A stretch of 30,276 bases of DNA from a virus. Made by a program: the position numbers and the translations under genes. The number at the start of each line of letters is the position of its first letter. Positions within the stretch are counted from its first letter, which is position 1. The notes beneath the pieces are model-generated. The model did not search any database. It had not been told where the DNA came from and worked only from the letters and a program-made list of their open reading frames with translations. This document shows, piece after piece, positions 10,295 through 29,643 of this stretch. The stretch lies in the IMG/VR virus record IMGVR_UViG_3300017731_000022. One strand, 5' to 3'.

Positions 10295-10318
10295 AATACG
10301 TTAAACATTGATGCACAT

Positions 10319-10975: not shown

Positions 10976-10988
10976 AATTATATATAAA
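10976..10988 (-). promoter_or_regulatory. Start-abutting motif variant TTTATATATAATT directly 5' of the ATG
   Basis: The minus strand reads TTTATATATAATT-ATG, 23 nt after the terL stop. Confidence 0.3.
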
Positions 10989-11011
10989 CATTTTTTAATT
11001 ATTTTTTGAGA

Positions 11012-12509: not shown

Positions 12510-12522
12510 ATTAATATATAAA
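12510..12522 (-). promoter_or_regulatory. Start-abutting motif TTTATATATTAAT directly 5' of the terS ATG
   Basis: The minus strand reads TTTATATATTAAT-ATG in the 28-bp gap before terS. Confidence 0.4.
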
Positions 12523-12537
12523 CATTTATAAATAATT

Positions 12538-13068: not shown

Positions 13069-13208
13069 TATCTTGTTATTTTACTATCTATCTTTTCTAT
13101 TAAATATCTTAATTGGCCTTGTTCCCATGTTCCAAGTTTTACGCCATTAATTGTAAATTTATAAAAATCTTTTCTATCTGTTTCTTTTAATTCAATATTT
13201 ATATACAT
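13068..13208 (-). CDS. Small ORF (46 aa), hypothetical; not in the ORF track
   Basis: Hand translation gives MYINIELKETDRKDFYKFTINGVKLGTWEQGQLRYLIEKIDSKITR. It starts 2 nt after the upstream stop, and its TAA overlaps the next ATG (TAATG). Confidence 0.45.
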   Translation of the reverse strand: MYINIELKETDRKDFYKFTINGVKLGTWEQGQLRYLIEKIDSKITR

Positions 13209-13210
13209 AA

Positions 13211-13459
13211 CTATTTATCTTGTTTTTCTCTACTTTTAATTACTCTGCTTTGTTCTTCTCTTAAATACTTTATTTCATGTTGTAAATAATCTAAAGCTTT
13301 TTCTAAATCTTGTATTTCATTACTTTTTAAATACTCATAGCCTTTTTTACCTGCTCTACAAACATATTTAATTATATTTCCTCTATTAAAGTTTAATCTG
13401 TATGCTTGCACAACATCTATTACTTCTATTCCTTGATCTGTTTTATAATGTAAACTCAT
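13211..13459 (-). CDS. DUF3310-like phage protein
   Basis: NFNRGNIIKYVCRAGKKG...QDLEKALDYLQHEI matches my recollection of the DUF3310 pattern (gN.iKY..R...K...DL.KA..Y). Confidence 0.5.
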   Translation of the reverse strand: MSLHYKTDQGIEVIDVVQAYRLNFNRGNIIKYVCRAGKKGYEYLKSNEIQDLEKALDYLQHEIKYLREEQSRVIKSREKQDK

Positions 13460-14172
13460 ATTTTTGTTCTTAGTTTTAATAAATTATAGCATTCTATGTA
13501 TTTCTGTTTTGCTTTACCTTTGTAATGTTGTATAAATAAATTATATAAATTCTTTACGTAACAAAATTTAGTATCGCATGATTTATAAAGTTTTTTAGCA
13601 TAAGCTTTTCCTTTACCTTTAAAATAGTTAACATTGTCAGCTCCATCACCAATAATCATTTGTTCGTAGAAATTATATAATGCTTGCTGTTCTGTTATAT
13701 CATAAACTTCTCTATGTTTAAAATGATAATTATACATTAAACAAGGAAATTGTTTGTAATCTTTATCAATAGAAACTATCATGACTTTATTTCTACCTAC
13801 TTCTTTAGATATATCATACCAATATTTAGCAACTAAATCGTCTGTTTCAATACCGTAAGCAAATAAACCATTATATTCTTTTCTAACAAACTCATGCATT
13901 TGAGATAATAAAGGTGGTATTTCAGTGTCATTTCTATTAGCTTTATATGTTTTAGTTAGTATCTTTCTAAAGTTTCCTTTAGATCCATTAAAAGTATATA
14001 TCTTTTCTATATCGTATAATTCTTCTAAGTCATTAACTATTTTCATATATTGTTGATCAAACTTAGCTATACTGTCTTCTATGTCTCTATAAAACTTATC
14101 ACTACTGCCTTCACTTTTAGCCCTTAAACAAGAAGCATAAACTAAACTATCTGCATCAATTAATAATATCAT
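13456..14172 (-). CDS. 5'-3' exonuclease / flap endonuclease (T4 RNase H-like)
   Basis: The FEN acidic-cluster motifs appear in order: LLIDADSLVY, YKANRN, GIETDDLVA, IVSIDKDYKQ and IGDGADNV. They parallel T4 RNase H (YKKNRG, EADD, SSDGDF, GDKKDNV). Confidence 0.75.
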   Translation of the reverse strand: MILLIDADSLVYASCLRAKSEGSSDKFYRDIEDSIAKFDQQYMKIVNDLEELYDIEKIYTFNGSKGNFRKILTKTYKANRNDTEIPPLLSQMHEFVRKEYNGLFAYGIETDDLVAKYWYDISKEVGRNKVMIVSIDKDYKQFPCLMYNYHFKHREVYDITEQQALYNFYEQMIIGDGADNVNYFKGKGKAYAKKLYKSCDTKFCYVKNLYNLFIQHYKGKAKQKYIECYNLLKLRTKI

Positions 14173-14909
14173 TATTCTTTTACAAACGTTCCATTTTGCA
14201 TTTTACCTTTACGGTTTTTAATTTCATTATAAGCAGAGTGTATGCATTCTTCTATACTCATAGCATTTAAATGTGCTAAGTTAGTTAATACAACAACCAT
14301 ATCTCCAATAGCATCTTCTATTTCTTTTGTATCTTGTTTTAATATTGCTTGTGCTAATTCACCTGCTTCTTCTATTAATTTAACATATTGTGTTTGCGCA
14401 TTACCTTTATCGTATAATCCTCTATCTTTTGCCCAAGTTCTAATATTATCAAATATTTCTAAATTTATTTTTGGTTTATTAATTACATCCCAAAAGTTTT
14501 TTAATGACTGCACATATATATATCTTTCATTATTATGTGCTGACTTAAAATTATTTCTTAAAATATATTCTTTTACTTCATCATTTAACTCTATATTATA
14601 TTCACTATCTAATTCTATATTAGTTGGCCAAGTATAATTATCAAAGCTTTTATTAAATGTCTTTTTAAATGTAACGGTTGTTTTAGTAATATGTATCATA
14701 AAATTATTAATTGTTTGTTTATACGTTCTTATATCATTTTTGTAGCCCAACTTATTTTGCCATTCAAATTCTAATTTAGAAGCTTCATCAATACATTTTG
14801 TTTTAGCTAATATTTTAAAGTCTGAATAACCTTGTTGGACTACGATTCTTTTTGCAGGATTTACAGTACAACCTACTTTTACACCTTCTATATGGTATAT
14901 GTAATACAT
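14172..14909 (-). CDS. mazG: MazG-type all-alpha NTP pyrophosphohydrolase with an N-terminal GIY-YIG/T5orf172-like segment
   Basis: The C-terminus, QYVKLIEEAGELAQAI...EIEDAIGDMVVVLTNLAHLNAMSIEE...NEIKNRKGKMQNGTFVK, carries the MazG EExxE...D signature. The N-terminus, YYIYHIEGVKVGCTVNPAKR, resembles a GIY-YIG superfamily core. Confidence 0.65.
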   Translation of the reverse strand: MYYIYHIEGVKVGCTVNPAKRIVVQQGYSDFKILAKTKCIDEASKLEFEWQNKLGYKNDIRTYKQTINNFMIHITKTTVTFKKTFNKSFDNYTWPTNIELDSEYNIELNDEVKEYILRNNFKSAHNNERYIYVQSLKNFWDVINKPKINLEIFDNIRTWAKDRGLYDKGNAQTQYVKLIEEAGELAQAILKQDTKEIEDAIGDMVVVLTNLAHLNAMSIEECIHSAYNEIKNRKGKMQNGTFVKE

Positions 14910-15151
14910 TAAATTTTTATGTTAGATCTACCACACAAAGGATATAAGTAAGTGTGGTATTTCATACCTTTAGTAATTTTTTTATTTTTAAATATAATGG
15001 TTTCTTTAGCAATATGTTCTTGTTTGCCACAATAACCAATAACTTCTCTATCTGGTTTTTCTATTTTTATAGATCCATAATATTTGTTACCAACATGATA
15101 ATCTACATGGTAACCTAAATGTTCGTATTTAACTCCGTAATATAAATTCAT
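14909..15151 (-). CDS. Hypothetical protein
   Basis: The 80-aa ORF is preceded by motif copy 15175..15187. Its TAA overlaps the next ATG. Confidence 0.5.
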   Translation of the reverse strand: MNLYYGVKYEHLGYHVDYHVGNKYYGSIKIEKPDREVIGYCGKQEHIAKETIIFKNKKITKGMKYHTYLYPLCGRSNIKI

Positions 15152-15174
15152 TGTATTTGTTTTATTGTTATATA

Positions 15175-15187
15175 GCTAATATACAAA
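15175..15187 (-). promoter_or_regulatory. Promoter-like motif TTTGTATATTAGC
   Basis: The minus strand reads TTTGTATATTAGC-TATATAACAATAAAACAAATACA-ATG within the 59-bp gap. The 13-mer is identical at 18385..18397. Confidence 0.5.
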
Positions 15188-15210
15188 TAACTTGTTAATA
15201 AAAAAAATAT

Positions 15211-15852
15211 TTATATGTTTTTATTGTAGTGACGTTCATATATATGTAAGTTATGAGCATAGTGTGTATAAAAACCTTGCTCACTATTTAAACTATTAGC
15301 AACTAATTCATGTAATTTTAAGAAACAATAAGCATCATTACAAAATCCAAACCATAAATCATTGCTTCTCATTAATACTGTCATGTGTAACTTATCTGAA
15401 TCAGGTGTATAATAAAATTGTATTGATAAAGTACAAGGAGTATCTTTAGAATAACCAGTATGTTCTTTACCATCATATATACTTATTACTGCACGTCTAG
15501 AATACTTATCACGTTTTAATTCTTTTATAGCATATTCCAATTGATTGTTTCTACTCCATTGCCAACCATAGTTTGAATTAACATATCCACGTTCATCCAT
15601 GTGGTTATACCAAATCTTAGCTACTTTAGCTATTTCAGTAGCATCACGGTTTTTAGATAAATACCATTCCCATTCTTTTTCTGCATAGTCTAATTTGAAA
15701 CCACGCTTTGGTGTAGTTACTATTTTTTGATTAGTATCTAATATAGTAAATATTTGATTGTATAAAGCTTTAGTACCATTAGCACTAGGTTGTGAATCTA
15801 ACTTTTTATAGTAATATTCAAAAGCTTCTGTTACGGTTTGAAATTGCCACAT
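15211..15852 (-). CDS. Deoxypyrimidylate hydroxymethylase of the ThyA superfamily; closest in motif pattern to T4 gp42 dCMP hydroxymethylase
   Basis: Four motifs parallel T4 gp42 as I remember it. EKEWEWYLSK matches ELEWYKSK, and VNSNYGWQWS matches INSNYGW.IWS. SRRAVISIY...PCTLSIQF carries a candidate catalytic Cys. MRSNDLWFGFCNDAY matches MRSNDVVFGFRNDYA, and the protein ends with HIYERHY. Confidence 0.75.
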   Translation of the reverse strand: MWQFQTVTEAFEYYYKKLDSQPSANGTKALYNQIFTILDTNQKIVTTPKRGFKLDYAEKEWEWYLSKNRDATEIAKVAKIWYNHMDERGYVNSNYGWQWSRNNQLEYAIKELKRDKYSRRAVISIYDGKEHTGYSKDTPCTLSIQFYYTPDSDKLHMTVLMRSNDLWFGFCNDAYCFLKLHELVANSLNSEQGFYTHYAHNLHIYERHYNKNI

Positions 15853-16001
15853 AATATATCTTTTTTTCTTATTGGATAAATATACTTATTATCTTTAAAT
15901 AAATATATATTTGTATTATCATTTAATTTATCTTTCCTTAAATATCTACCTTTTAATTTTGACCCTGCAAATTTAAAATAATAAAGTTTGTTTTGGTTCA
16001 T
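15831..16001 (-). CDS. Possible small ORF (56 aa) bridging the GT and hydroxymethylase genes
   Basis: Hand translation gives MNQNKLYYFKFAGSKLKGRYLRKDKLNDNTNIYLFKDNKYIYPIRKKDILCGNFKP. It covers the 120-nt gap, but it overlaps the GT end by 29 nt and the next gene by 22 nt. Confidence 0.3.
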   Translation of the reverse strand: MNQNKLYYFKFAGSKLKGRYLRKDKLNDNTNIYLFKDNKYIYPIRKKDILCGNFKP

Positions 16002-17178
16002 ACGCTTGTTTTTTCTTGGAAACTGTTTTAGACTTTTCTATTAAATCTTTAAAAGCTATATTTACATCACAATGTGATTTAGCAACATTATAAGCTAAGT
16101 TCCTTTTTTTATTCCTTAATTGTTTGTTATTTGATAATTCAACTATTTGTTCAACAGTTTCTTGATATTTATCTCTTTCATTATATATAAAACAATCTAA
16201 GTCATAAAAACTATCTCCTTGAATATGATAATTATTTTGTGCCCATTGTTTATCTACAACAACAATCATGCCAATGTTTATCATTTCTAAAGTAGAATAT
16301 TCTATAATATTACTATACTCTTCCTTTTTTAAATTAAAAAAATTAGCACCAAACATATTGTTAGATAATAATTCTAAAGTTGGTATTCTATCATAAGGAC
16401 CATAAACATGTAAATGATCTAAGTCTTGGCTATCTATAATACTTTTACTTCTATATTTTATATTACTATGTTCAGGTGATTTTAAATCCTTAGAGTTAGT
16501 AACAAAGAATTTTGTTTTAGCTCCAATAGATTTTTCTATACCTCTTGCTTCACATATTATTTCATGTTTAGATAATAATGGTTGTAAATGAATCATTCTA
16601 TCAGGCTCTTTAAATGTAGCGAATCTACCTAAATAAGACATTTTTTTTCTTTGTTCTTTTTTAATTAAAAAATCTAACTTACTAAAATCATGACCATTAT
16701 TAAAAAATTTAACAGGTGTATTAATACCAATTTCTTTTATTTTTTTATAAAACACAGTTCCTTTACCAAAAGTAAAAGCACAATCCATTTTTTTAACTGT
16801 TTCCCATAAATTGTAATTCCTATTTAAAGAATGTATTTTATGATCATTTTGAAAAATAATTTTAATAGGTTTATCAACACCAACTACAAGTTCATTAAAA
16901 AACTTTTCTTTATATGAATTAGAATTTGATTTACTTGGTAATGATTGGTAAAAAACAATATCACAATTATTTAATTGTTGCTTTATATTATTTATTTTAT
17001 CGTTTTTAAACTCTATTATTTTAGTTTGTTGAGTATTTTTTCTACCCCATTTTTTATCTAATGTAGCATAAGACTTACAGTTATACCCTTGTGATAATAA
17101 ATAATTTTGAAATTCAGTTGCAAATCTAGTAACACCACAACCTTCAATACCTCGTCCTAATAATATACCTATCTTCAT
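15973..17178 (-). CDS. a-gt: DNA alpha-glucosyltransferase-like GT-B glycosyltransferase (T4 AGT homologue)
   Basis: The 401-aa length compares with about 400 aa for T4 AGT. MKIGILLGRGIEGCGVTRF parallels T4 MRICIFMARGLEGCGVTKF, and NNCDIVFYQSLPSKS parallels NDCDILIINSVPATS. IIFQNDHKIHSLNRNYNLWETVKKMD parallels VVYQHDHSVLSLRRNLGLEETVRRAD, and IEYSTLEMINIGMIVVV parallels LEYTHLELGACGTIPVF. The T4 sequence is from memory. Confidence 0.7.
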   Translation of the reverse strand: MKIGILLGRGIEGCGVTRFATEFQNYLLSQGYNCKSYATLDKKWGRKNTQQTKIIEFKNDKINNIKQQLNNCDIVFYQSLPSKSNSNSYKEKFFNELVVGVDKPIKIIFQNDHKIHSLNRNYNLWETVKKMDCAFTFGKGTVFYKKIKEIGINTPVKFFNNGHDFSKLDFLIKKEQRKKMSYLGRFATFKEPDRMIHLQPLLSKHEIICEARGIEKSIGAKTKFFVTNSKDLKSPEHSNIKYRSKSIIDSQDLDHLHVYGPYDRIPTLELLSNNMFGANFFNLKKEEYSNIIEYSTLEMINIGMIVVVDKQWAQNNYHIQGDSFYDLDCFIYNERDKYQETVEQIVELSNNKQLRNKKRNLAYNVAKSHCDVNIAFKDLIEKSKTVSKKKQAYEPKQTLLF

Positions 17179-17435
17179 TTTTTATTATAATTATTTAATG
17201 CTGCTAAATAAGCAACGGCGTCTAATAAATTGTCTTCTTTGTGATTATAAGATTGTCTAGATAACTTTAAAGCTACAAGACACATATACATATCTTGTGG
17301 TGTAATAGTTTTACCAGTAGCTCCTGATGCTATCATAGCTGCTCTTTCCATTCCTTCTGAAAATGGACCGTACATACGTTCTTTTTCTTGTGAACGTTTA
17401 TTTATAATCTTATTTGCTTCTTCTAATATATTCAT
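17175..17435 (-). CDS. Small helical protein (DUF6378-like, tentative), translationally coupled to the GT gene
   Basis: The 86-aa ORF overlaps the GT start by ATGA. The pattern ERMYGPF...MYMCLVALKLSRQSYNHKEDNLLDAVAYLAAL recalls a phage family often found near nucleotide-metabolism genes. Confidence 0.4.
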   Translation of the reverse strand: MNILEEANKIINKRSQEKERMYGPFSEGMERAAMIASGATGKTITPQDMYMCLVALKLSRQSYNHKEDNLLDAVAYLAALNNYNKK

Positions 17436-17560
17436 TCTTCTTCGTCTGTTTGCTGTTTATCTATAATAATCTTTAATGCTTCTAATTTTATATACATTTG
17501 TGATACTATGTTTTCTAGTCTAAGTATTCTTTGTAGTTGTGTATATTTCTTTTTATTCAT
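17432..17560 (-). CDS. Small ORF (42 aa), hypothetical; not in the ORF track
   Basis: Hand translation gives MNKKKYTQLQRILRLENIVSQMYIKLEALKIIIDKQQTDEEE. It overlaps the next gene by ATGA and fills a 117-nt gap. Confidence 0.4.
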   Translation of the reverse strand: MNKKKYTQLQRILRLENIVSQMYIKLEALKIIIDKQQTDEEE

Positions 17561-17753
17561 AACTTTCTAATATTAAGCATTCAATGTCATGTAATTGTTC
17601 TTCAGAAAGTAAATCATAAATGTCAATACCGTTAACAGTTACACTTTCTATATAAGCACTATGTGGTGAACCTGGATAATCCCATGTTTGTGGTTCTGCT
17701 TCTTCGTAAGAGTATTCAACAAATAAAGCTACATCGCAATAATTAATAATCAT
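17553..17753 (-). CDS. Small acidic hypothetical protein
   Basis: The 66-aa ORF is coupled to the upstream gene by ATGA. Confidence 0.5.
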   Translation of the reverse strand: MIINYCDVALFVEYSYEEAEPQTWDYPGSPHSAYIESVTVNGIDIYDLLSEEQLHDIECLILESYE

Positions 17754-18025
17754 AATTCGTATTGTTTAAGTTTATGTTCTAATTCTTCTAATTGTTCTTG
17801 TAATTTACTTATAATTTCATTCTTTTGAGACCTTATTAAACTTACTTTTTTATTTAATATGTCATTCTCAACTTGTAATCTATTTGTAAATATACCAATC
17901 TCTGTAATACCTTTAACACAATTATTTATGTCTTTGTTATTTGGTTTTTGTTTTTGCCATTCTAATAATTTATCTATTAAAAAGGAATACCAAACTTGGT
18001 AAGATTGTTTTTGTAGTAAATTCAT
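17750..18025 (-). CDS. Hypothetical coiled-coil protein
   Basis: The 91-aa ORF has a heptad-like C-terminal half. It is coupled by ATGA on both sides. Confidence 0.5.
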   Translation of the reverse strand: MNLLQKQSYQVWYSFLIDKLLEWQKQKPNNKDINNCVKGITEIGIFTNRLQVENDILNKKVSLIRSQKNEIISKLQEQLEELEHKLKQYEL

Positions 18026-18210
18026 ACTGAAGTACCTATTAAAAAACCTACTACTGCAATACCTAAAAACATTAATACTAAAATTAATTGCATTATAGTA
18101 TCTCTTTGTCTCATCAATTTACGTTCTTGTTCTTCTAGTTCTTTTTGCGTATAAACTTCTATTCTGTTTTTTCGTGTTTGGATATGTAATCCTGTCTTTG
18201 TCTTTTTCAT
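18022..18210 (-). CDS. Small membrane-anchored protein
   Basis: The 62-aa ORF has a basic N-terminal half and a C-terminal hydrophobic helix, IMQLILVLMFLGIAVVGFLIG. Confidence 0.5.
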   Translation of the reverse strand: MKKTKTGLHIQTRKNRIEVYTQKELEEQERKLMRQRDTIMQLILVLMFLGIAVVGFLIGTSV

Positions 18211-18211
18211 T

Positions 18212-18367
18212 TTATTGTATATTAAATATTACGTCTCTTATGTATTGAGCTCTATTAAGTAATTTAGTTTCTGTTTCTTTTGGTAATGTTCTTACAAGCA
18301 TATTAGCACTTAGAGTTGTTTCTATGTCTCTAAGTTCTTTACGTAAGTCTGTTAGTTGTGTTCTCAT
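18212..18367 (-). CDS. Small ORF (51 aa), hypothetical; not in the ORF track
   Basis: Hand translation gives MRTQLTDLRKELRDIETTLSANMLVRTLPKETETKLLNRAQYIRDVIFNIQ. It begins 17 nt after motif 18385..18397 and ends 1 nt before the next ATG. Confidence 0.5.
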   Translation of the reverse strand: MRTQLTDLRKELRDIETTLSANMLVRTLPKETETKLLNRAQYIRDVIFNIQ

Positions 18368-18384
18368 TGTTATTGTTTTATACT

Positions 18385-18397
18385 GCTAATATACAAA
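18385..18397 (-). promoter_or_regulatory. Promoter-like motif TTTGTATATTAGC
   Basis: The minus strand reads TTTGTATATTAGC-AGTATAAAACAATAACA-ATG. The downstream flank is also similar to the copy at 15175. Confidence 0.5.
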
Positions 18398-18442
18398 ACA
18401 ACTTAACATTATAAACAATTTTTTAACTATTTTAACAAAACT

Positions 18443-18640
18443 TTAACATTTATCATATATCTTATCTATCTCTGCTATCCATTGTATTAAACGTTTTGGA
18501 TTACAAGAACACGGTTCACTATATTTATGTTTATAGTATTTAGCGTGTAAAGTACATAATAACTTATATTGCTCTTGACTAAGCTTATCTTTTACCTCAG
18601 CTTTGAACTTTTTCCAGTTATCTTTATCTATTTGTTCCAT
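18443..18640 (-). CDS. Hypothetical protein
   Basis: The 65-aa ORF has an ATG start and contains PCSCNPKR. Confidence 0.5.
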   Translation of the reverse strand: MEQIDKDNWKKFKAEVKDKLSQEQYKLLCTLHAKYYKHKYSEPCSCNPKRLIQWIAEIDKIYDKC

Positions 18641-18780
18641 AAATCTAAGTCTATATCATTCCACTCTTCACGACGTCTATCACATCCGCAATCTTTATTT
18701 AATAATTTACTAATTTTTTTAACTAACCAATGTATACCTGTATAATAAGTAAAATAGTAAAATAAATCTCCTAATTTCAT
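18628..18780 (-). CDS. Small ORF (50 aa), hypothetical; not in the ORF track
   Basis: Hand translation gives MKLGDLFYYFTYYTGIHWLVKKISKLLNKDCGCDRRREEWNDIDLDLWNK. It overlaps the sigma gene stop by ATGA and fills a 136-nt gap. Confidence 0.4.
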   Translation of the reverse strand: MKLGDLFYYFTYYTGIHWLVKKISKLLNKDCGCDRRREEWNDIDLDLWNK

Positions 18781-19268
18781 AATTGATCTTTTATAAATTT
18801 TTTAGTTGTTCTATAAGTATTATAAAGTGATATATAGCTTATACCAGTTTCTCTACTTAAACTAGCAACGCTTTTTCCACTTGCTATTAATTCAAAAACT
18901 TTTCTATCATACCAATAAAGGTCATTAAGTATTTGATCTACTTTGTTTTTATTTTTAGCGTATTCAACCTCATCTATACCCGGATCATCAATTTGTTTTA
19001 TTTCTTTTATTTGGTCTAAATATATCTTAATTTTTTTAGCTTCTTTTTTATGTATATTTAAATAAATACCTCTTAAAACTTTATAACAATAATAGTGATT
19101 AATATCACCTTTATAAGATATATCTAATCCTTTATGTATGTCTAAGTGTATTTGTATATACATTTCTTGTACAACATCTTCTGCTAAACTAGGATTACAA
19201 CCAAATGACTTTACTATGTTTATCCAATCTTTATGCTTTAAATAAGCTAACTCTACTAAAGATTTCAT
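18777..19268 (-). CDS. Sigma-70 family (ECF-like) RNA polymerase sigma factor
   Basis: AEDVVQEMYIQIH...YYCYKVLRGIYLNIHKKEAK resembles region 2. LYWYDRKVFELIASGKSVASLSRETGISYISLYNTYRTTKKFI resembles the region 4 HTH. Confidence 0.65.
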   Translation of the reverse strand: MKSLVELAYLKHKDWINIVKSFGCNPSLAEDVVQEMYIQIHLDIHKGLDISYKGDINHYYCYKVLRGIYLNIHKKEAKKIKIYLDQIKEIKQIDDPGIDEVEYAKNKNKVDQILNDLYWYDRKVFELIASGKSVASLSRETGISYISLYNTYRTTKKFIKDQL

Positions 19269-19272
19269 TTCA

Positions 19273-20136
19273 TTATGTTAATTTTTTATTTGATATTACA
19301 AAATACTTAAGTGGATCATATATCTCACCAACTACAAATGGTAGACCAAATTCATTAATACTAAAACTAAATGTTTCAAAAGCATAACCTCTTGAATTTT
19401 TACAACTAACAGTTATCCATTCTTTGTTTACTGTATTTGCTTCCAATTGAATTTGTGTCTCTGTTTTTTTCATTAAAAAGCTTCCTAAATGTCCTGTTGG
19501 TTTATCACTACCATAATTGCTATGTATAACAGTTACTATATGGCATTTATATTTAGCACTCCATTCCATTATCTTTTGTACACATAAATTAGATTCTTCT
19601 AAATTATTTACATCAGAAACTAAATCAGCAATACCATCAATAATAATTAATCCATTTTTATCTTTATTTTCTTCTAAACAATATTCTATAAATTGCATAC
19701 GCTGTTTATAATTTATAGTTCTTAAAGCATATGTATGATAACAACCTAAGTCATGCATATTGGCCATATCTTTTACTCTTTTAAATACTCTTTGACTGTG
19801 CCAATGACCTTGCTCTGTATCAAAATGAATTAAACATTTATTATCTCTATGTCCTAACATTTGTCCACCAAAATTATTACCACCACTTAAATAAACTGAA
19901 GCTAATAATGATATAAAAAAAGTCTTTTTAGTTTTTGGCGGTGCTTGTACAAATGAAAAGTTACCGTACGTACCTATTGGAATTGGGAATTTTTTTTCTC
20001 CACTTTTGGTTTGGATAGTAGTTTCACCAAGACTTAATGCTATAGGAGGATATTCCATAAATTCATTAGTGTCAATATAACACTCTTCCTTTATTAATTC
20101 CATTAACATGTTATCTGTGGTTTTTTTTTCTGTCAT
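19273..20136 (-). CDS. RecA-fold P-loop ATPase (DnaB/RepA-like, AAA_25 type); replicative helicase candidate
   Basis: Walker A-like QAPPKTKKT and Walker B-like GLIIIDGIADL are present, followed by HIVTVIHSN. I place the start at ATG 20136, because the track start at 20169 is a TTG that lies inside the promoter-like motif. Confidence 0.55.
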   Translation of the reverse strand: MTEKKTTDNMLMELIKEECYIDTNEFMEYPPIALSLGETTIQTKSGEKKFPIPIGTYGNFSFVQAPPKTKKTFFISLLASVYLSGGNNFGGQMLGHRDNKCLIHFDTEQGHWHSQRVFKRVKDMANMHDLGCYHTYALRTINYKQRMQFIEYCLEENKDKNGLIIIDGIADLVSDVNNLEESNLCVQKIMEWSAKYKCHIVTVIHSNYGSDKPTGHLGSFLMKKTETQIQLEANTVNKEWITVSCKNSRGYAFETFSFSINEFGLPFVVGEIYDPLKYFVISNKKLT

Positions 20137-20157
20137 AATATATTTTGTCTTGTTTTT

Positions 20158-20170
20158 GTTAATATACAAA
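20158..20170 (-). promoter_or_regulatory. Promoter-like motif TTTGTATATTAAC
   Basis: The motif lies 21 nt upstream of ATG 20136. Its T-rich 5' end merges with the U-tract of terminator 20168..20196. Confidence 0.5.
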
Positions 20171-20196
20171 AAAAAAGAGAAGTCATTAACCTCTCT
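20168..20196 (-). terminator. Rho-independent terminator after the SSB gene
   Basis: The minus-strand RNA reads AGAGAGG-UUAAUGA-CUUCUCU followed by U8. This is a 7-bp stem with one G-U pair. Confidence 0.65.
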
Positions 20197-20223
20197 AAAA
20201 AAAATATTTTGTTTTATTTTATT

Positions 20224-20529
20224 TTAAAAAGGTAAATCAGCAGTTTCAGTAGTATTTAATTCTACTGTTTGTTGTTGATTTTCTCTTTCGGCATTTACAA
20301 TACTTCCGTTATTCCAAACGACTTTACCGTTTCCAATGTAGGTTTTTTGTTTTTTAGCTTCTCTTTCTTCCTGTGTTTGACTAACATAGATACTTGTATT
20401 GTTTCCGTATCTTGTTTCGTCATTTACAGACATAGTTAAATTTACATACACGGCTCCATCTTTGCCTGCTATAAATTTTTCTTTAGGTAATTTGTCTACT
20501 CTTATTGAGTAAGTAATTATTGCACTCAT
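20224..20529 (-). CDS. ssb: Single-stranded DNA-binding protein (short OB-type with an acidic tail)
   Basis: The 101-aa ORF ends in TETADLPF, which resembles the SSB protein-interaction tip (D-I/L-P-F). It lies in the replication/recombination block. Confidence 0.55.
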   Translation of the reverse strand: MSAIITYSIRVDKLPKEKFIAGKDGAVYVNLTMSVNDETRYGNNTSIYVSQTQEEREAKKQKTYIGNGKVVWNNGSIVNAERENQQQTVELNTTETADLPF

Positions 20530-20535
20530 ATTTAT

Positions 20536-20919
20536 TTATTTTTTAAATGATTCTGATTCGTCTTCTCCAAATACTCCAAGTTCATAAAAACCTGTAAGCT
20601 TTAAAACAGCTCTACTCATTGAGCGTTTCTCAGCCATTTCAGCAACATACCAACTATTAGTATTTCCGTCTTTGAAACTTGTACCTTTATATGCACTACC
20701 AAAAGTTTCTATACGTTTACCATCTTTTTCTGCATTTGCTTTAAATACTGCGAAATTTGGCTCACATTTAATAACTTCATAGTGTACATTAATTTGTTCC
20801 ATTGCTTGTATTTTATCTATACCTTGCCTTGTAATAATAGTATAATGTTGATGTTTGAAAAAATCTTCTTTTGTTAAATTATATTTCTCATATAATTCTT
20901 TTAATTTGTCTCTATTCAT
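20536..20919 (-). CDS. Hypothetical protein of the recombination module (possible annealing/accessory protein)
   Basis: The 127-aa ORF has a C-terminal segment AEMAEKRSMSRAVLKLTGF that loosely recalls Rad52/Sak-type motifs. The assignment is not secure. Confidence 0.3.
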   Translation of the reverse strand: MNRDKLKELYEKYNLTKEDFFKHQHYTIITRQGIDKIQAMEQINVHYEVIKCEPNFAVFKANAEKDGKRIETFGSAYKGTSFKDGNTNSWYVAEMAEKRSMSRAVLKLTGFYELGVFGEDESESFKK

Positions 20920-21056
20920 TATTGTTTGTTTAAATATTCTACTTCTAAAATTGATTCTAAATATCTTACTCTATTTTCTAATGCTTGTATTCTTGCATTT
21001 AAGAAATCTATTGTTTCGTTTGAGGCTACTCTTTTTACGTCTTCGTAATGTGTCAT
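20919..21056 (-). CDS. Small ORF (45 aa), hypothetical coiled coil; not in the ORF track
   Basis: Hand translation gives MTHYEDVKRVASNETIDFLNARIQALENRVRYLESILEVEYLNKQ. It starts 1 nt after the upstream stop and overlaps the next gene by TAATG. Confidence 0.45.
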   Translation of the reverse strand: MTHYEDVKRVASNETIDFLNARIQALENRVRYLESILEVEYLNKQ

Positions 21057-21057
21057 G

Positions 21058-21273
21058 TTATAAATTTTCAAAATAAATAAAAGGATTCATATTACCAAAT
21101 AAATATCCTAAATTTATTATGCTAGAATACTTTAAATCTCCAACGAAACATTCTTTTTCTAGTGATTCTACTACACAACTAACTAAATCTGGTTGTGATG
21201 TGTTTTTAATTTGAATAAGTTCTTTGTAATGTGGTTTAAGTCTGTCATATAGACTAATCATTTTGTAATTCAT
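21058..21273 (-). CDS. Hypothetical protein
   Basis: The 71-aa ORF is the first gene after motif 21299..21311. Confidence 0.5.
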   Translation of the reverse strand: MNYKMISLYDRLKPHYKELIQIKNTSQPDLVSCVVESLEKECFVGDLKYSSIINLGYLFGNMNPFIYFENL

Positions 21274-21298
21274 ATTTCTAAGTTTTATGTTATTTACT

Positions 21299-21311
21299 AC
21301 AAATATACAAA
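21299..21311 (-). promoter_or_regulatory. Promoter-like motif TTTGTATATTTGT
   Basis: The motif lies 25 nt upstream of ATG 21273 and immediately downstream of terminator 21340..21366. Confidence 0.5.
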
Positions 21312-21339
21312 AAAAAATTATATAAACAGTTTTTTAACT

Positions 21340-21366
21340 AAAAAAAAACCACCCTTTTTAGAGTGG
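21340..21366 (-). terminator. Rho-independent terminator after the NinG gene
   Basis: The minus-strand RNA reads CCACUCU-AAAA-AGGGUGG followed by U9, with one G-U pair in the stem. Confidence 0.7.
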
Positions 21367-21427
21367 CTTAATTTGATTGGTTACAATCTAAACATAAAAC
21401 AAAGACAATTTTGTAATACAAATATAT

Positions 21428-21850
21428 TTATTTATTAAGGTTATCAGTTAATTCTTTATATTTACTTATTAACATTTCTAAATCAATATTATCAAACTTA
21501 ATAACTTGTTTTGATTTTATAAATAATTCTTCCGCTAGTCCTTTATGGTATTTTTCATCTAAATGCTTAGCAAATAAATATTGTTCACCATATCTAAACA
21601 CGTTACAACCTGCACATTGTACTTGGCAATTTAATTCTGTTATTTTATCATTGTCATCTAATGTACCAAATCTAGTAGCATAATTTTTACGACTTTGAAA
21701 ATGCCCGCATTGTAGTTTTTTCCAATGGTCTTTTTTACCACAAGTAAAACATTCAGCTATATCATTTTTTGCATAACGTCTTCTAATGTATATACTAAAA
21801 ACATTATCTAATTTATCTATTAGCTTTTTTCTTTTGGATTTTTTTGCCAC
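21428..21850 (-). CDS. ninG: NinG/Rap-like recombination endonuclease
   Basis: LDNVFSIYIRRRY...CFTCGKK...LQCGHFQSR...RF...N...QCAGCNVFRYGEQ follows the lambda NinG family pattern. The only canonical start is GTG at 21850..21848. Confidence 0.65.
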   Translation of the reverse strand: MAKKSKRKKLIDKLDNVFSIYIRRRYAKNDIAECFTCGKKDHWKKLQCGHFQSRKNYATRFGTLDDNDKITELNCQVQCAGCNVFRYGEQYLFAKHLDEKYHKGLAEELFIKSKQVIKFDNIDLEMLISKYKELTDNLNK

Positions 21851-21856
21851 GCGTGT

Positions 21857-21891
21857 GTATATTATAATATTATATATATATTATTATATAC
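21857..21891. repeat. A/T-only imperfect palindrome in the intergenic gap
   Basis: GTATATTATAATAT...ATATTATTATATAC has 14-bp arms with one mismatch around a 7-bp centre. It is flanked by the palindromic hexamer ACGCGT at 21849..21854. Confidence 0.8.
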
Positions 21892-21904
21892 GTAATATAT
21901 ATAA

Positions 21905-21924
21905 TAATTAAATATAATTAAATA
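21905..21924. repeat. Tandem 10-bp repeat TAATTAAATA x2
   Basis: Bases 21905..21914 equal 21915..21924 exactly. The repeat lies in the same 77-bp intergenic region. Confidence 0.8.
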
Positions 21925-21927
21925 TAT

Positions 21928-22407
21928 TTATTTTTTAAAATTTTTAGTAATTTTCTCAGCACTTCTTGCACCAAAATATCCACCGTAAACTAAAAGTAAT
22001 AACGAAGATAGTAAATCTATCCACTCAGATGATATTCTAAACACTTCTAAGGAACTATCTAGTATTATATATATAAATAATGTAAGAGTTAAAAAAGCTA
22101 AGCTTAAAGGTCTTATATTTTTACTTAACCAACTATCTGAATTCATGTCTGCAACCCAACGTTTTGTTGTTTCTTGCATTTCAATCATATCATACCTTAA
22201 TTCTTCTAACAATAATTGCTTATCTGTTTCTGATAATCCAGTGTCTCCTTCTATTTTAGATGCTAATTCCTTTAATGAATCTATGCCAGTTATATTTCCT
22301 GCAACTGTTAATAGTTCTGGTGCTATTTCTTTACCTTGTTTTACAAGCCATCTTAAAGCGTCACCTACTCTTGTAGTTCCATTTTTCTTTTTATACTTAC
22401 CTGCCAT
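21928..22407 (-). CDS. Lysis-associated membrane protein (holin or spanin-like candidate)
   Basis: The 159-aa ORF has a soluble N-terminal ~95 aa. Two hydrophobic helices follow, IRPLSLAFLTLTLFIYIIL and LLSSLLLLVYGGYFGA. It overlaps the endolysin stop by 11 nt. Confidence 0.5.
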   Translation of the reverse strand: MAGKYKKKNGTTRVGDALRWLVKQGKEIAPELLTVAGNITGIDSLKELASKIEGDTGLSETDKQLLLEELRYDMIEMQETTKRWVADMNSDSWLSKNIRPLSLAFLTLTLFIYIILDSSLEVFRISSEWIDLLSSLLLLVYGGYFGARSAEKITKNFKK

Positions 22408-22771
22408 CCCAACGAGCTTTTACTTTACGAATATCATAATGTACAAAGGTATCATACAATCCAAGTCCACCTTGTAACATATGTCCTAAATCTATTAAGT
22501 CTTCTATTATTTTATATACTTCAGCTGGTTTTAAACTTTGTATAGTTATATCTGCTGCTTTACCTAATAAATGTTGTGATGTTTTTGAGCCACCTACTTT
22601 AGCATTATGGTCTGGACATCTATATCCGCTATTTATTTTTATAGGTCTACCTGTATAAGTTCTTAAAAATTGAAGTTGATTAGCAAGTTTAATAATGTTT
22701 TCATAAACATCAAATGGCATTTCACAACCACCTTTGCATTCAAACTCTTCTATTTTAAAGTTTTTTGTCAT
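22397..22771 (-). CDS. Endolysin, peptidase M15 family (zinc D-Ala-D-Ala carboxypeptidase / L-Ala-D-Glu peptidase type)
   Basis: FKIEEFECKG...INSGYRCPDHNAKVGGSKTSQHLLGKAADI...HYD carries the H..D...H zinc triad pattern. I place the start at ATG 22771 (MTKNF), because the track start at 22816 is a TTG. Confidence 0.8.
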   Translation of the reverse strand: MTKNFKIEEFECKGGCEMPFDVYENIIKLANQLQFLRTYTGRPIKINSGYRCPDHNAKVGGSKTSQHLLGKAADITIQSLKPAEVYKIIEDLIDLGHMLQGGLGLYDTFVHYDIRKVKARWDGR

Positions 22772-22922
22772 TCTTTTTTTTATGTGTATCGTATATCTTT
22801 TGCAATGTATATGCAATAGACACTAAAAGAAGTATAATTTTCAAACTATTCTCAACAGCAGTAAAACTAACACCTAAAGTAACAACGTTTAAACAAGCTA
22901 ATTTTATATCCTCTAAATTCAT
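22755..22922 (-). CDS. Holin candidate (55 aa); not in the ORF track
   Basis: Hand translation gives MNLEDIKLACLNVVTLGVSFTAVENSLKIILLLVSIAYTLQKIYDTHKKKNDKKL. It has two hydrophobic segments and a highly basic C-terminus. It lies immediately upstream of the endolysin, overlaps it by 17 nt, and is coupled by ATGA to the ORF before it. Confidence 0.55.
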   Translation of the reverse strand: MNLEDIKLACLNVVTLGVSFTAVENSLKIILLLVSIAYTLQKIYDTHKKKNDKKL

Positions 22923-23017
22923 ATCATTAAAGCCTTTAAAAAGTTATTCCATTTTGCAATTAACCAAAATTTAAACTGCTCTAACTTGTCTGCTAAGTAC
23001 CTTAGTCCTTTAATCAT
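22919..23017 (-). CDS. Small ORF (32 aa), amphipathic; not in the ORF track
   Basis: Hand translation gives MIKGLRYLADKLEQFKFWLIAKWNNFLKALMI. It starts 4 nt after the upstream stop and overlaps the holin candidate by ATGA. Confidence 0.35.
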   Translation of the reverse strand: MIKGLRYLADKLEQFKFWLIAKWNNFLKALMI

Positions 23018-23021
23018 TTTA

Positions 23022-23327
23022 TTACATTTTATTTGTTTGATAATCCACCCCATAAAAGCTATGTACTCCATTACCATCTGCTACTCCAACTGCATAGGAT
23101 TTCCAACCATAAGGGTGTTCTTCTATTCCTTTCCACATAACATCTATGTGGTATTTTTCACTAAATACATTTGGTTTTATTTCATTACCCTCTGCATCTA
23201 TTTCGCTTTGTTCTAAAACTATATGACCAAGTTTTACTATAGCGTGTGGATGATTTTCTTCTAAAGCATCTATTTTAGTATTTGCTTGTGCCTCATCTAC
23301 AAACTCGTATTTACCTATCTTTATCAT
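23022..23327 (-). CDS. Hypothetical protein
   Basis: The 101-aa ORF overlaps the stop of the 423-aa gene by ATGA. Confidence 0.5.
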   Translation of the reverse strand: MIKIGKYEFVDEAQANTKIDALEENHPHAIVKLGHIVLEQSEIDAEGNEIKPNVFSEKYHIDVMWKGIEEHPYGWKSYAVGVADGNGVHSFYGVDYQTNKM

Positions 23328-24595
23328 AATGTTGTTAGTGTTTCTAATTCGCTATCAGTTAAGTATGTGTCGTAGATTCTGGCATCATATACTTTACCCT
23401 CAAAGTATCTATCTGCACCAGTTTGACTTGCAAAATTAAATCTGTTAAAACCAGTAGGAACAACAACATTTGTAGTGATAGACCTTACTGCACCATTAAT
23501 AAATACCTTAAATTCATTTTCTTTAAATTTTAAAGCTACTTTGTTTCTTTGGTTTATATTAAATTCTGAAGTTATAATTAAATTCAGCTGATTTGAGCCA
23601 TTGTAAACTTTAACTCTTAAACTATTAAGCTCATAAGTAAACGTGATATAATTATTAGTTGTGCCATCACTTAGACTAATAATATTATAATCTAAATAAG
23701 GAGGATTAAAGCTATTTACATCAACAAAAAATGTACCCTCTGTAATATTAAATAAATTAACATCTCCAGCATCAGTACAAACATCTGCGTTTCTTGTTAC
23801 AATTGAATTTGCTGGTGTTTCTATATAGCTTGATAAGGTTTTGCCTTCTTCTACTTGACAACCCCACAAATAAACAAAAGCACTTGTAGAAGTATCTGAA
23901 GCATCTATTTGACCAGTTGTAGCTCTTGGACTAAAATAACTTCCAATAGTAGCAGCAGCATCTGTATTGTAAACAACAGAAAGTCTGTACCAACCATTAC
24001 CATAATTTTCTACTTTAGAACTTGTTATTGTGAAATCTGCACCAGCCACACTTGTTGTTAAAGTTGTATTGCTAAATTGAAAAATAGCATCAGCTCTATT
24101 TGGGTAAGTGCCTTGCATCCTAAAAGCAAAAAAATCGCCCTCGCCCTGTTTGACGAAAACAGAAGTACAAATGTCTAACTGTGCAGATGATGACTTAGAA
24201 GCAGCATCAGAAAGGTAATTGTTTGTACCACTTGTTGAGCCTCTTTTTATTTTATCAGCATTTAATTCTCCAGTAGGAGATATTATTTGATTTGCAGTAA
24301 CAGTTAAGTCTGCTTGTTTAGTCCAAGCTGCATTGTCAAACTGCTCAGAATAAACTTGTCTGTTTGTTCTAAGTGCTTCTAATAGTAAACTCGGACAGTT
24401 GCTATTTAACCAATCAAGTCTTGGTATATCGTTTGTTGAAGCACCTATAGTTTCTATAAGCCCATCTTTATTAACTCTTGTACCAGCACCAACTCTAACA
24501 AAGTCAAAATCTCCTGTACCATCATTTGGCAATACAGAATAAACTTTATCTTCTCTATATCCACTTGGTATAAGTGCTAAAATAGGGTTATTCAT
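23324..24595 (-). CDS. Tail fibre / receptor-binding candidate with a C-terminal concanavalin-A/LamG-like domain
   Basis: The 423-aa ORF has a C-terminal segment typical of LamG/Laminin_G_3 lectin-fold domains: FFVDVNS...ISLSDGTTNNYITF...NKVALKFKENEFKVFINGA...FEGKVYDARIYDTYLTDSELETLT. Confidence 0.5.
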   Translation of the reverse strand: MNNPILALIPSGYREDKVYSVLPNDGTGDFDFVRVGAGTRVNKDGLIETIGASTNDIPRLDWLNSNCPSLLLEALRTNRQVYSEQFDNAAWTKQADLTVTANQIISPTGELNADKIKRGSTSGTNNYLSDAASKSSSAQLDICTSVFVKQGEGDFFAFRMQGTYPNRADAIFQFSNTTLTTSVAGADFTITSSKVENYGNGWYRLSVVYNTDAAATIGSYFSPRATTGQIDASDTSTSAFVYLWGCQVEEGKTLSSYIETPANSIVTRNADVCTDAGDVNLFNITEGTFFVDVNSFNPPYLDYNIISLSDGTTNNYITFTYELNSLRVKVYNGSNQLNLIITSEFNINQRNKVALKFKENEFKVFINGAVRSITTNVVVPTGFNRFNFASQTGADRYFEGKVYDARIYDTYLTDSELETLTTL

Positions 24596-24719
24596 CTTCT
24601 TCTTTTGGTAGCGATTCGTTTAGTATTTTTACAATCTCTTGAGCTTGTGCTAATACTGCGATAGGCAATGTGTTAATAACTTGATTTACTCTTGCAATTT
24701 GTTCTTTAGTAATTTCCAT
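24588..24719 (-). CDS. Small ORF (43 aa), hypothetical; not in the ORF track
   Basis: Hand translation gives MEITKEQIARVNQVINTLPIAVLAQAQEIVKILNESLPKEEDE. It begins 13 nt after motif 24733..24745 and overlaps the next gene by 8 nt. Confidence 0.4.
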   Translation of the reverse strand: MEITKEQIARVNQVINTLPIAVLAQAQEIVKILNESLPKEEDE

Positions 24720-24732
24720 AATTGTTTTTTAT

Positions 24733-24745
24733 GTAAATATACAAA
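24733..24745 (-). promoter_or_regulatory. Promoter-like motif TTTGTATATTTAC
   Basis: The motif immediately follows the stop of ORF 24746..24991 and lies 13 nt upstream of ATG 24719. Confidence 0.45.
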
Positions 24746-24991
24746 TTATTCTGGTAAATCTTCGTACTCGTCTTGGTAATCACTTGCCAAATAAGATTCC
24801 ATTTCAGTAATCTGTTCTGCACTTAACTCATCTTTATAAAAGTCATTTGCTAAAACCCATTTGAAATGGTCTTTAATTGCTTCTACATTTTCATCAGCAC
24901 CTATTTGACTTAATTGGTCTGGTATCTGTGAAGTAATTACCTCTTTGTGGCTTTCCTCTGTATTTTCAGATGTTACTACGTTTTTATACAT
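24746..24991 (-). CDS. Small very acidic protein between the two fibre genes
   Basis: The 81-aa ORF is D/E-rich and ends in ASDYQDEYEDLPE. Confidence 0.5.
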   Translation of the reverse strand: MYKNVVTSENTEESHKEVITSQIPDQLSQIGADENVEAIKDHFKWVLANDFYKDELSAEQITEMESYLASDYQDEYEDLPE

Positions 24992-26639: not shown

Positions 26640-26816
26640 TTATTCTATTATTATATATTCGTTTTGTTCAGTTTGTAAATAATCTCCATTCTCAGCTAAT
26701 ACTTCAAAAGCTGTTGTAGGGTCAATATAATCTCTATATATTAAACCCCAGCCTATATTGTTATCTAAAGCTCCTGAACCCCACCAAGTTGTTTCGTATA
26801 TTTTTCCCCAACTCAT
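26640..26816 (-). CDS. Small ORF (58 aa) carrying the shared C-terminal motif; not in the ORF track
   Basis: Hand translation gives MSWGKIYETTWWGSGALDNNIGWGLIYRDYIDPTTAFEVLAENGDYLQTEQNEYIIIE. It is coupled by ATGA to the preceding small ORF. Its C-terminus nearly matches that of the 880-aa protein. Confidence 0.55.
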   Translation of the reverse strand: MSWGKIYETTWWGSGALDNNIGWGLIYRDYIDPTTAFEVLAENGDYLQTEQNEYIIIE

Positions 26817-26911
26817 TTATTTTCTTTTTTATTGTTTTTGTTTTCTTTTAATGACTCATCTATGTACTTTTTTAACTTAATAAGATTTTTTTCTTTTACT
26901 TTATATCTCAT
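26813..26911 (-). CDS. Small ORF (32 aa), lysine-rich; not in the ORF track
   Basis: Hand translation gives MRYKVKEKNLIKLKKYIDESLKENKNNKKENK. It overlaps its neighbours by ATGA at both ends. Confidence 0.35.
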   Translation of the reverse strand: MRYKVKEKNLIKLKKYIDESLKENKNNKKENK

Positions 26912-29622: not shown

Positions 29623-29643
29623 CAAAACTAATTTATTTTGTAT

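Follow-up and report, generated by a model that had tools for sequence, protein, structure and literature searches.

Phage-encoded sigma systems include those of SPO1 (gp28 and gp33-34) and T4 (gp55), and the late promoter of T4 is a single 8-base-pair (bp) element, TATAAATA, at -10, read by gp55, a sigma factor with region 2 only. Bacteroidota have promoters of the -33 TTTG / -7 TAnnTTTG class, for which Bayley 2000, Vingadassalom 2005 and Chen 2007 are said to be the earlier sources; mutagenesis of the ompA promoter in the last of these reportedly found a spacer of 19 bp to be optimal. This class (sigmaABfr / sigmaA) is also described in Baez 2019, Guerin 2021 and Ryan 2020, and its -33 element is weak or optional in Baez 2019. 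The box read by the primary sigma factor, TAnnTTTG, lies at -12 to -5, with the start site 4-5 nucleotides (nt) beyond it and a weak or optional TTTG at -33 (PMC6847099; PMC9723704; PMC7366714). The F. johnsoniae box hardly varies at T-12, A-11, T-8, T-7, T-6 and G-5, and the transcription start site again falls 4-5 nt past it (PMC6847099); the box of F. psychrophilum is the same, at -12 to -5, and the median 5' untranslated region (UTR) there is 24 nt long (PMC9723704), and most 5' UTRs of B. thetaiotaomicron measure 23 nt (PMC7366714). Among phage sigma factors, gp47 of Salmonella phage 7-11, which has region 4, reads bipartite late promoters (GTAAtg-N16-aCTA) and has its own gene first transcribed by the host enzyme, and gp36 of phiEco32, which lacks region 4, reads the single element tAATGTAtA (PMC8948821). 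Here we analyse a 30,276-nt stretch of viral DNA, IMG/VR record IMGVR_UViG_3300017731_000022 (the window, by which we mean the whole of that stretch), in which a 10-bp word, TTTGTATATT, recurs shortly before genes. It is fairly probable that the five copies on the gene strand are promoters of the host sigmaA type that head five transcription units.

An exact scan found six matches to TTTGTATATT in the window, five on the minus strand and one on the plus strand. The five are those that an earlier note on this DNA had picked out by eye as same-strand copies sharing a 10-bp core, and they lie where it had placed them; it had written them as if on the plus strand, whereas they are on the reverse strand, which carries every credible gene of the window (29% G+C). 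The five copies, A1 to A5, occupy 15178-15187, 18388-18397, 20161-20170, 21302-21311 and 24736-24745, and the 13-mers that contain them stand 23, 17, 21, 25 and 13 nt before the next ATG, within the 13-25 nt first given. As had been noticed, 15175-15187 and 18385-18397 share one and the same 13-mer (TTTGTATATTAGC), and the leaders that follow are alike. All five copies fall within the non-coding 5.3% of the window (binomial p = 4e-7); equal frequency in coding and intergenic sequence, which the note had named as a refutation, is not seen, with none of the five in coding sequence. The shuffled-background scan of both strands that it had called for gave the same picture. Dinucleotide shuffles of the whole window contained a mean of 0.8 copies (maximum 3) against six observed. 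Because the intergenic DNA is very AT-rich, we also shuffled the intergenic sequence by itself, and 2000 such shuffles contained a mean of 0.02 copies (maximum 2) against five observed, which rules out an artefact of AT composition as the cause of the enrichment. The restriction to one strand and to intergenic sequence supports the original description of promoter-like, strand-specific elements heading gene blocks, and the five gene-strand copies almost certainly mark promoters. The sixth copy, at 10282-10291 on the plus strand, sits in the 167-nt gap 10152-10318 and runs antisense toward gene 10319-10975; its next bases, CT, make a poor -7 box, and it is probably there by chance.

Which promoter class do the copies represent? 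The motif had been said not to fit the Bacteroidota -7 box, and here the comparison came out the other way. The last six bases of the 10-mer and the two that follow align in register with TAnnTTTG at all five sites. A4 matches TAHHTTTG, the form of the box with no G at -10 or -9, at 8/8 positions (TATATTTG), A5 at 7/8 (G-5 replaced by A), A1 and A2 at 7/8 (T-6 replaced by A) and A3 at 6/8 (both replacements), so the full set of TAHHTTTG bases is found in one of the five window copies, and again at the level of the family. Since A4 alone has every defining base, we call the other four near-consensus and not proven members of the class.

The family evidence comes from IMG/VR, which holds hundreds of related contigs, many of 29-32 kilobases (kb). 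We fetched 157 loci, all from uncultured phages, as a comparison set, found in them the orthologues of the genes that follow the five sites, and compared the unique upstream regions. An exact TAHHTTTG is present at the A4 site in 24/31 unique regions (TATATTTG, TAAATTTG, TAACTTTG, TAGCTTTG and others); TTTGTTTATA usually supplies a TTTG 19-21 nt upstream of the box, with a terminator before that, and TTTGTATATT itself is kept in seven of the 31. At the A3 site, 39 of 61 unique regions have TAnnTTTA directly after a terminator (TACCTTTA, TATCTTTA, TAAATTTA and others) with variable 'nn'; the final G occurs in none of them and TTTGTATATT is kept in five. Sites orthologous to A2 read TTTG-N19-21-TAnnTTTG (TATATTTG, TACGTTTG, TACATTTG), and these relatives have two tandem TTTGTTTATAA repeats, the box lying N19-21 from the second TTTG. 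For A1, TATATTAGC is kept in six close relatives, in which the TTTG varies (TTGG, TTTT).

The tandem TTTGTTTATAA units are 11-bp direct repeats, present in two and sometimes three copies upstream of the -7 box, and they are found before orthologues of gene 18212-18367 (L031, L063, L062, L041-L047 and other loci) and also before those of gene 21058-21273. The proximal TTTG falls 19-21 nt from the box, so that the -33 element comes from the repeat itself; an extra copy may be a second promoter or an operator.

The box part is kept even where the downstream protein of a relative shares just 30-50% identity. The two T's equivalent to T-8 and T-7 are changed in 8-16% of alignable orthologues, and the G of the 'TTTG' that opens the 10-mer is the most variable position, changed in 71%. 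A fixed TA, two free bases and a fixed TTT is, judged from these alignments, the signature of a sigmaA box and not of a contiguous 10-13-mer. Moreover, the family as a whole associates the box with a -33 element: among 250 unique intergenic TAHHTTTG contexts, a TTTG stands at a spacer of 19, 20 or 21 nt in 11%, 6% and 16%, respectively, against at most 1.4% at each of these spacers in 559 coding contexts; taken together, these spacers occur in 32% of intergenic and 1.6% of coding boxes. A TTTG lies directly before the box in 7% of family boxes, and G occupies -13 in 29% against a background of 14%. We considered whether this TTTG prefix could be an extended element that replaces a missing -33. 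Boxes without a -33 element do not have it more often than others, the association being if anything positive, and we therefore reject an 'extended -7' role. Promoters of the E. coli -35/-10 type were also sought and discarded as candidates, with 118 found against 119 expected in shuffles.

A stand-alone RNA unit gives a separate view of the box. Between the NinG-like gene and A4, at 21337-21426 on the minus strand, lies a small RNA (sRNA) unit of about 70 nt that consists of a TATATTTG box (21419-21426), a U/G-rich single strand, a hairpin and a terminator (21346-21369). The unit is kept across relatives, with the conserved single strand AAUUGUCUUUGUUUU(A/U)UGUUU (AAUUGUCUUUGUUUUAUGUUU in the window). 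RNAalifold recovered the terminator stem only, and the first hairpin was specified by hand and then passed a pair-count test: each of its five pairs (5/5) is altered in a compensatory way in relatives, 91% of cells overall are paired (31-56% with slid partners), and none of 500 shuffles (0/500) reached the observed values. An Rfam scan across the window, the sRNA included, gave no match. Because an RNA gene requires its own promoter and TAnnTTTG is the only conserved element upstream of this one, the box works as a promoter in these phages, and we take the unit to indicate that TAnnTTTG boxes fire in this family. A second mini-unit, at 29643-29715 on the minus strand, has a TATATTTG box, GUGUCUGUUUUGG and a terminator at 29650-29671, just upstream of site B1 (described below), and may be a paralogue of the sRNA.

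The five sites, all on the minus strand, precede distinct groups of genes. A4 (21299-21330) has a cTG at 21327-21329, a 19-nt spacer and the exact box TATATTTG at 21300-21307; its ATG is at 21273 and it heads four small genes of unknown function. A3 (20158-20196) begins with a terminator at 20176-20196 whose T-run merges into TTTGTATATTAAC, has the box TATATTAA at 20159-20166 and, with the ATG at 20136, leads into an operon of an AAA_25 ATPase and the phage sigma factor. A2 (18385-18418) has a TTG at 18416-18418, a 22-nt spacer and the box TATATTAG at 18386-18393 inside TTTGTATATTAGC; from the ATG at 18367 it heads small open reading frames (ORFs), an alpha-glucosyltransferase and a thymidylate-synthase-like gene. 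A1 (15175-15187, TTTGTATATTAGC) has a -7-type box TATATTAG at 15176-15183 and precedes an 80-amino-acid (aa) gene, 14909-15151, at the head of a MazG-like / exonuclease / kinase-like block. A5 (24733-24745, TTTGTATATTTAC; box TATATTTA at 24734-24741) comes directly after the stop of 24746-24991 and before the ATG of a 44-aa ORF, 24585-24719, which is below the default length of the ORF list and is followed by genes for a tail protein, an endolysin and a holin. Intrinsic terminators are predicted at 20196-20176, abutting A3, and at 21369-21346, before A4; of the two copies said to follow terminators directly, A3 does so, and A4 does so only approximately, 34 nt away.

The phage sigma factor itself, identified as such in the earlier note, is well founded. 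The ORF at 18777-19268 (minus strand, 163 aa) is the second gene of the A3 operon. Sequence searches against PDB sequences and Pfam alone gave no clear identity, and Pfam and PHROG matches are weak (Sigma70_r2 at E = 0.028). The AlphaFold2 model (predicted local distance difference test score 80.5) shows two helical domains with a disordered linker (residues 89-103) between them, and in a Foldseek search of the PDB the top ~40 matches are all extracytoplasmic function (ECF) sigma factors aligned over the full length, with probability up to 1.00; SigL, SigH, RpoE, AlgU, SigW, SigK and sigmaE are among them. The NCBIfam sigma70-ECF model TIGR02937 aligns residues 14-163 to model positions 13-165 of 165 (E = 3e-8); its score of 33.4 bits is under the curated cut-off of 42.9, and the full-length match recurs in 21/21 homologues. 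The next-best NCBIfam models are the Bacteroidetes subfamilies Sig70_bacteroi1 and GFO_1088/PG0214. Sigma2 and sigma4 without regions 1.1 and 3, the composition of ECF (group 4) factors, is what the ORF has, and the model and its matches indicate a genuine two-domain ECF-like sigma (sigma2 + sigma4). Every related locus whose flank is long enough carries the gene, 5-8.5 kb upstream of the large terminase gene (TerL), and it is retained even where the terminase has been replaced by one of a different type. In ten relatives (L013, L031, L038, L045, L052, L054, L058, L060, L063, L070) the sigma is 66-76% identical to that of the window and the large terminase 27-33%; by these identities the packaging module has been swapped, with the sigma and the early region kept.

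The window also contains a motif that the earlier note had overlooked. This bipartite class-B motif, [C/T]AAAA-N13-GTTTATATATTA[A/G]T, is much better conserved than the 10-mer and abuts the ATG of five genes, and its proximal word, TTTATATATTA[AG]T, is close to TTTGTATATT and more abundant. All five copies are on the minus strand. B1 (29610-29641, ACAAAATAAATTAGTTTTGTTTATATATTAGT) has a terminator upstream at 29650-29671 and runs into the ATG at 29609 of a 116-aa gene that is followed by the portal gene. B2 (12510-12541, TTAAAATTATTTATAAATGTTTATATATTAAT) precedes the ATG at 12509 of the small terminase, with the large terminase next, and B3 (10976-11009, TCAAAAAATAATTAAAAAATGTTTATATATAATT) the ATG at 10975 of the gene after the large terminase, which encodes a 218-aa protein (phrog_32199); B3 is conserved in 61/72 unique orthologous regions. 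B4 (3532-3563, ACAAAAAAAATTAAAAACTATTATATATTAGT) stands before the ATG at 3531 of a 348-aa head-protease-like protein, and B5 (1763-1794, GCAAAATTAATTTTTAACACTTATATATTAAT) before the ATG at 1762 of a 209-aa protein, then a 308-aa virion structural protein.

Across the family, TTATATATTA is the most over-represented strand-specific word (155 occurrences on the gene strand, 13 on the other), and the class-B consensus is cTAAAAtAAttTAAAAAtGTTTATATATTArTAtG. Class-B and -33 TTTG architectures are mutually exclusive across the 157 loci: a -33 TTTG accompanies 51% of intergenic TATATTTG boxes (2% in coding sequence) and a [CT]AAAA element 1% of them, and intergenic TATATTA[AG] boxes have the former in 0-2% and the latter in 56-59%. 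Of 139 unique bipartite matches, 135 are followed within 60 nt by an ORF of 40 aa or more. The ATG of that ORF begins exactly 2 nt after the motif in 75 (54%), GTG or TTG never takes its place, and the base at that position is A in 126/139 matches, even outside an ATG. Some copies lie directly after terminators. We regard class B as a candidate second promoter class, for late genes, in which the conserved A is likely the start site, giving leaderless or very short-leader mRNAs. Bacteroidota have few mRNAs without a leader: they make up 5.5% in F. psychrophilum (PMC9723704), and 3.7% of 5' UTRs in B. thetaiotaomicron are shorter than 10 nt (PMC7366714). Class B is distinct from the host consensus and stands before terminase, portal, head and virion genes, as late promoters of a phage sigma would, and by analogy with phage 7-11 we infer that the phage sigma reads it, class B being a better candidate target than TTTGTATATT. 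The presence of the sigma in all relatives means that no presence/absence correlation with class B is possible and that the family offers no natural negative control.

For the TTTGTATATT sites, we infer the following holoenzyme, start sites and timing. Host RNA polymerase with the primary sigma factor (sigmaABfr type) would bind boxes made of the last six bases of the 10-mer (TATATT) and the next two, with the preceding TTTG as a T-rich upstream flank, and would start 4-5 nt downstream. The result would be five serial units on a single coding strand, with predicted leaders of ~9-22 nt, compatible with the published UTR values of 23-24 nt. The A4 unit would express small early genes from a consensus, terminator-insulated promoter, the A3 unit the ATPase and the phage sigma, and the A2 and A1 units the nucleotide and DNA-modification genes; A5 would be an internal promoter ahead of the tail and lysis genes. 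A1, A2, A3 and A5, being off-consensus, are presumably weaker than A4. Sigma made from the A3 unit would then redirect RNA polymerase to the bipartite class-B promoters of the packaging, head and portal genes.

These steps could be parts of a wider two-tier programme, which we put forward tentatively and regard as possible but doubtful. Host-type boxes would drive the early and middle units and the sigma, and the sigma would drive leaderless late mRNAs from the ~33-bp class-B promoters. The off-consensus sites A1-A3 would be hybrid 'middle' promoters for both holoenzymes, transcription from class B would begin at the conserved A two bases further on, which in 54% of sites doubles as the first base of the start codon, and the U/G-rich seed of the sRNA would pair with the A/C-rich class-A leaders and shut them down.

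Several observations weigh against assigning the five copies to the host sigma factor. Three of the five boxes have A at the nearly invariant T-6 and two have A at G-5, leaving one perfect box; A1, A3 and A5 lack TTTG or TTG at -33; and strict TAHHTTTG over the whole window is not significantly intergenic (3/19, p = 0.08). G is present at -13 in 5/5 copies against 29% family-wide, a uniformity beyond what the host consensus demands, and the 10-mer, G included, is fixed at all five protein-operon promoters and absent from the two sRNA-type boxes. A5, before tail and lysis genes, is not in an 'early' position. The start sites are predicted ones and the host a probable one. Finally, A1-A3 (TTTGTATATTA[GA]) differ by one base from the proximal part of class B (TTTATATATTA[AG]), and this one-base difference means that the phage sigma could recognise them.

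Is TTTGTATATT, or at least A1-A3 (TTTGTATATTA[GA]C), then a phage middle or late element read by the ECF-like sigma, much as the earlier note had imagined? We think this unlikely. The sigma is real, and single-element promoters of phage sigma factors exist (phiEco32 gp36, tAATGTAtA; PMC8948821), although in the phiEco32/7-11 pair the single-element sigma is the one lacking region 4, and the sigma here has a sigma4-like domain. A1-A3 end in TATATTA[AG], the class-B ending, which family-wide has a -33 TTTG in 0-2% of cases, and their boxes break the near-invariant T-6; however, they lack the [CT]AAAA element, and the orthologous A2, A3 and A4 sites are of host type, TAnnTTT[G/A] with variable 'nn' and a -33 TTTG. 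An exact 10-mer five times in one genome would suit a dedicated reader, but the G that sets the 10-mer apart from class B is its least conserved base. The place of A5 ahead of tail and lysis genes would suit one too, yet the late structural genes carry class B instead. A3 also heads the operon of the sigma itself, and so A3, or A4 upstream, must be read by the unmodified host enzyme.

Recognition by the host sigma factor also accounts better for the sites than a role of the 10-mer as a binding site for a phage regulator or as an RNA-level leader signal for translation or stability, with transcripts starting further upstream, a reading to which we give little credence. The roughly constant 13-25 nt to the ATG and the leader that A1 and A2 share beyond the motif would be in keeping with such a role. 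So would A5, which follows a stop codon with no terminator and is probably also carried on a longer mRNA; A3 and A4, however, lie just past intrinsic terminators and need a new start. The pattern of orthologous conservation (TA, two free bases, TTT, then G or A) is that of a sigmaA box and not of a contiguous site, the motif is non-palindromic with no partner half-site, and no such sequence-specific upstream motif is found in Bacteroidota translation (PMC6847099). A further point for an RNA-level signal is the conserved sRNA seed, which is complementary to the A/C-rich leaders after A1-A4 (15152-15174, 18368-18384, 20137-20157 and 21274-21298, minus strand): ATAAAACAAAtACAA, ahead of ATG 15151, matches it at 14/15 positions, and the best four predicted duplexes among 50 start regions are those of the genes after A1, A2, A4 and A3. 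The duplex energies do not surpass those obtained with shuffled seeds (best duplex, p = 0.24; top five, p = 0.057), and composition may therefore explain the complementarity. That the five-fold identity is merely historical, through cassette copying or gene conversion, or chance in T-rich, TA-rich spacers, is very improbable: A1 and A2 do share a 13-mer and leader, suggesting duplication, and the 10-mer dissolves outside the closest relatives, but the composition-matched expectation falls far below the five copies seen, A3, A4 and A5 have flanks that bear no relation to those of A1 and A2, and the box is conserved where the downstream proteins have diverged widely.

Who is the host? The source of the window is an uncultured marine phage of ~30 kb, and the window covers most or all of its genome. 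It has packaging, virion and lysis genes (small and large terminase, portal, head-protease-like, tape-measure-like, tail-spike, endolysin and holin) and genes for a NinG/Rap-like nuclease, an AAA_25 ATPase, an alpha-glucosyltransferase, a thymidylate-synthase-like protein, a MazG-like protein and an exonuclease. There is no close cultured phage; the sole DNA match is 400 bp at 78% identity to Flavobacterium phages, and the best TerL matches are F. psychrophilum phages at 38% identity. A Shine-Dalgarno-like 4-mer precedes only 1/49 window genes, and the upstream regions are A-rich; those of Bacteroidota likewise lack Shine-Dalgarno sequences and are A-rich (PMC6847099). The sigma has no homologue in 50,697 cultured-phage records, and a search with it of 185,579 GTDB species genomes gave no host genome or prophage match, so that no cultured relative or prophage anchors the host. 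The host is nevertheless probably a marine member of the Bacteroidota, likely of the Flavobacteriia, because of the TerL and DNA matches to Flavobacterium phages, the rarity of Shine-Dalgarno sequences, the nearness of the sigma to Bacteroidetes ECF subfamilies and the lack of an excess of E. coli-type promoters. These signs are indirect; those from TerL, the DNA match, Shine-Dalgarno rarity, the sigma subfamily and the 29% G+C are mutually consistent.

Other features of the window deserve mention. Three short minus-strand ORFs, 24585-24719 (44 aa), 13068-13208 (46 aa) and 26813-26911 (32 aa), each overlap the start of the next gene (ATGA/TAATG type) and occupy gaps that a 50-aa threshold makes look non-coding, which puts the real non-coding fraction below 5%. 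The minus-strand block 13211-17435 resembles nucleotide and DNA-modification genes: it encodes an alpha-glucosyltransferase (phrog_2888, E = 1e-66), a thymidylate-synthase-like protein (possibly a pyrimidine hydroxymethylase), a MazG-like pyrophosphatase and a nucleotide-kinase-like protein, and this gene content suggests glucosylated, hypermodified phage DNA. Ahead of the NinG/Rap-like gene, a 77-nt, nearly pure-AT gap at 21851-21927 (minus strand) has tandem TATATTTA boxes and palindromic TATATA/ACGT runs (...TTATATATATTACGTATATAATAATATATATATAAT...) and could be a promoter cluster, an operator or a replication origin.

What does the repeated motif tell us? It indicates that promoter signals of the Bacteroidota type are in use in an abundant group of uncultured marine phages of ~30 kb, and such signals offer a route, from sequence alone, to assigning phages to Bacteroidota hosts and delimiting their transcription units. 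The larger value lies in the combination of a universally conserved sigma, a bipartite motif that ends at the start codons of late genes and a structured sRNA; class B with its ECF-like sigma, and the sRNA, are more novel than the motif first flagged. We found no Bacteroidota-phage promoter class read by a phage-encoded sigma in a literature search that was thin and partly on flavobacterial phages, and the two-tier programme may not have been described before for phages of this phylum. If the link between class B and the sigma is true, the pair would provide orthogonal promoter-sigma parts for Bacteroidota genetics.

How, finally, does the locus compare with known systems? The earlier note had likened the 10-mer to a single extended -10 element as in T4 late promoters, and neither half of that comparison stands. 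The T4 late promoter differs in sequence, and unlike gp55 and the phiEco32 factor gp36, the sigma here has both sigma2 and sigma4, the latter a C-terminal sigma4-like helix-turn-helix domain, and aligns full-length to ECF sigmas. As in an extended -10 (TGnTATAAT), a TG stands shortly before a TATA-rich hexamer, and three of our sites lack a -35 element; however, the TG here abuts the hexamer (TG-TATATT) without the spacing base, its G is the position that changes in 71% of orthologues, and there is no inverse association with the -33 element. Phage 7-11 is closer, with a small sigma in an early or middle operon of the host enzyme and a distinct motif before late genes, although that motif corresponds here to class B and not to TTTGTATATT, which separates our locus from phage-sigma systems as far as the 10-mer is concerned. 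The nearest likeness is to Bacteroidota sigmaA promoters. Shared with them are the register of the 8-mer, the T-rich upstream flank, the TTTG at 19-21 nt in the family, the short predicted leaders without Shine-Dalgarno sequences, the strand-specific intergenic positions and the box before an sRNA gene; the window departs from them in having one perfect box in five, G at -13 outside the described consensus, A at -6 in three boxes and at -5 in two, and three boxes without a -33 TTG. At the level of the family, and as far as alignment can assign them, the TTTGTATATT sites belong to the Bacteroidota -33/-7 class, a known promoter type.

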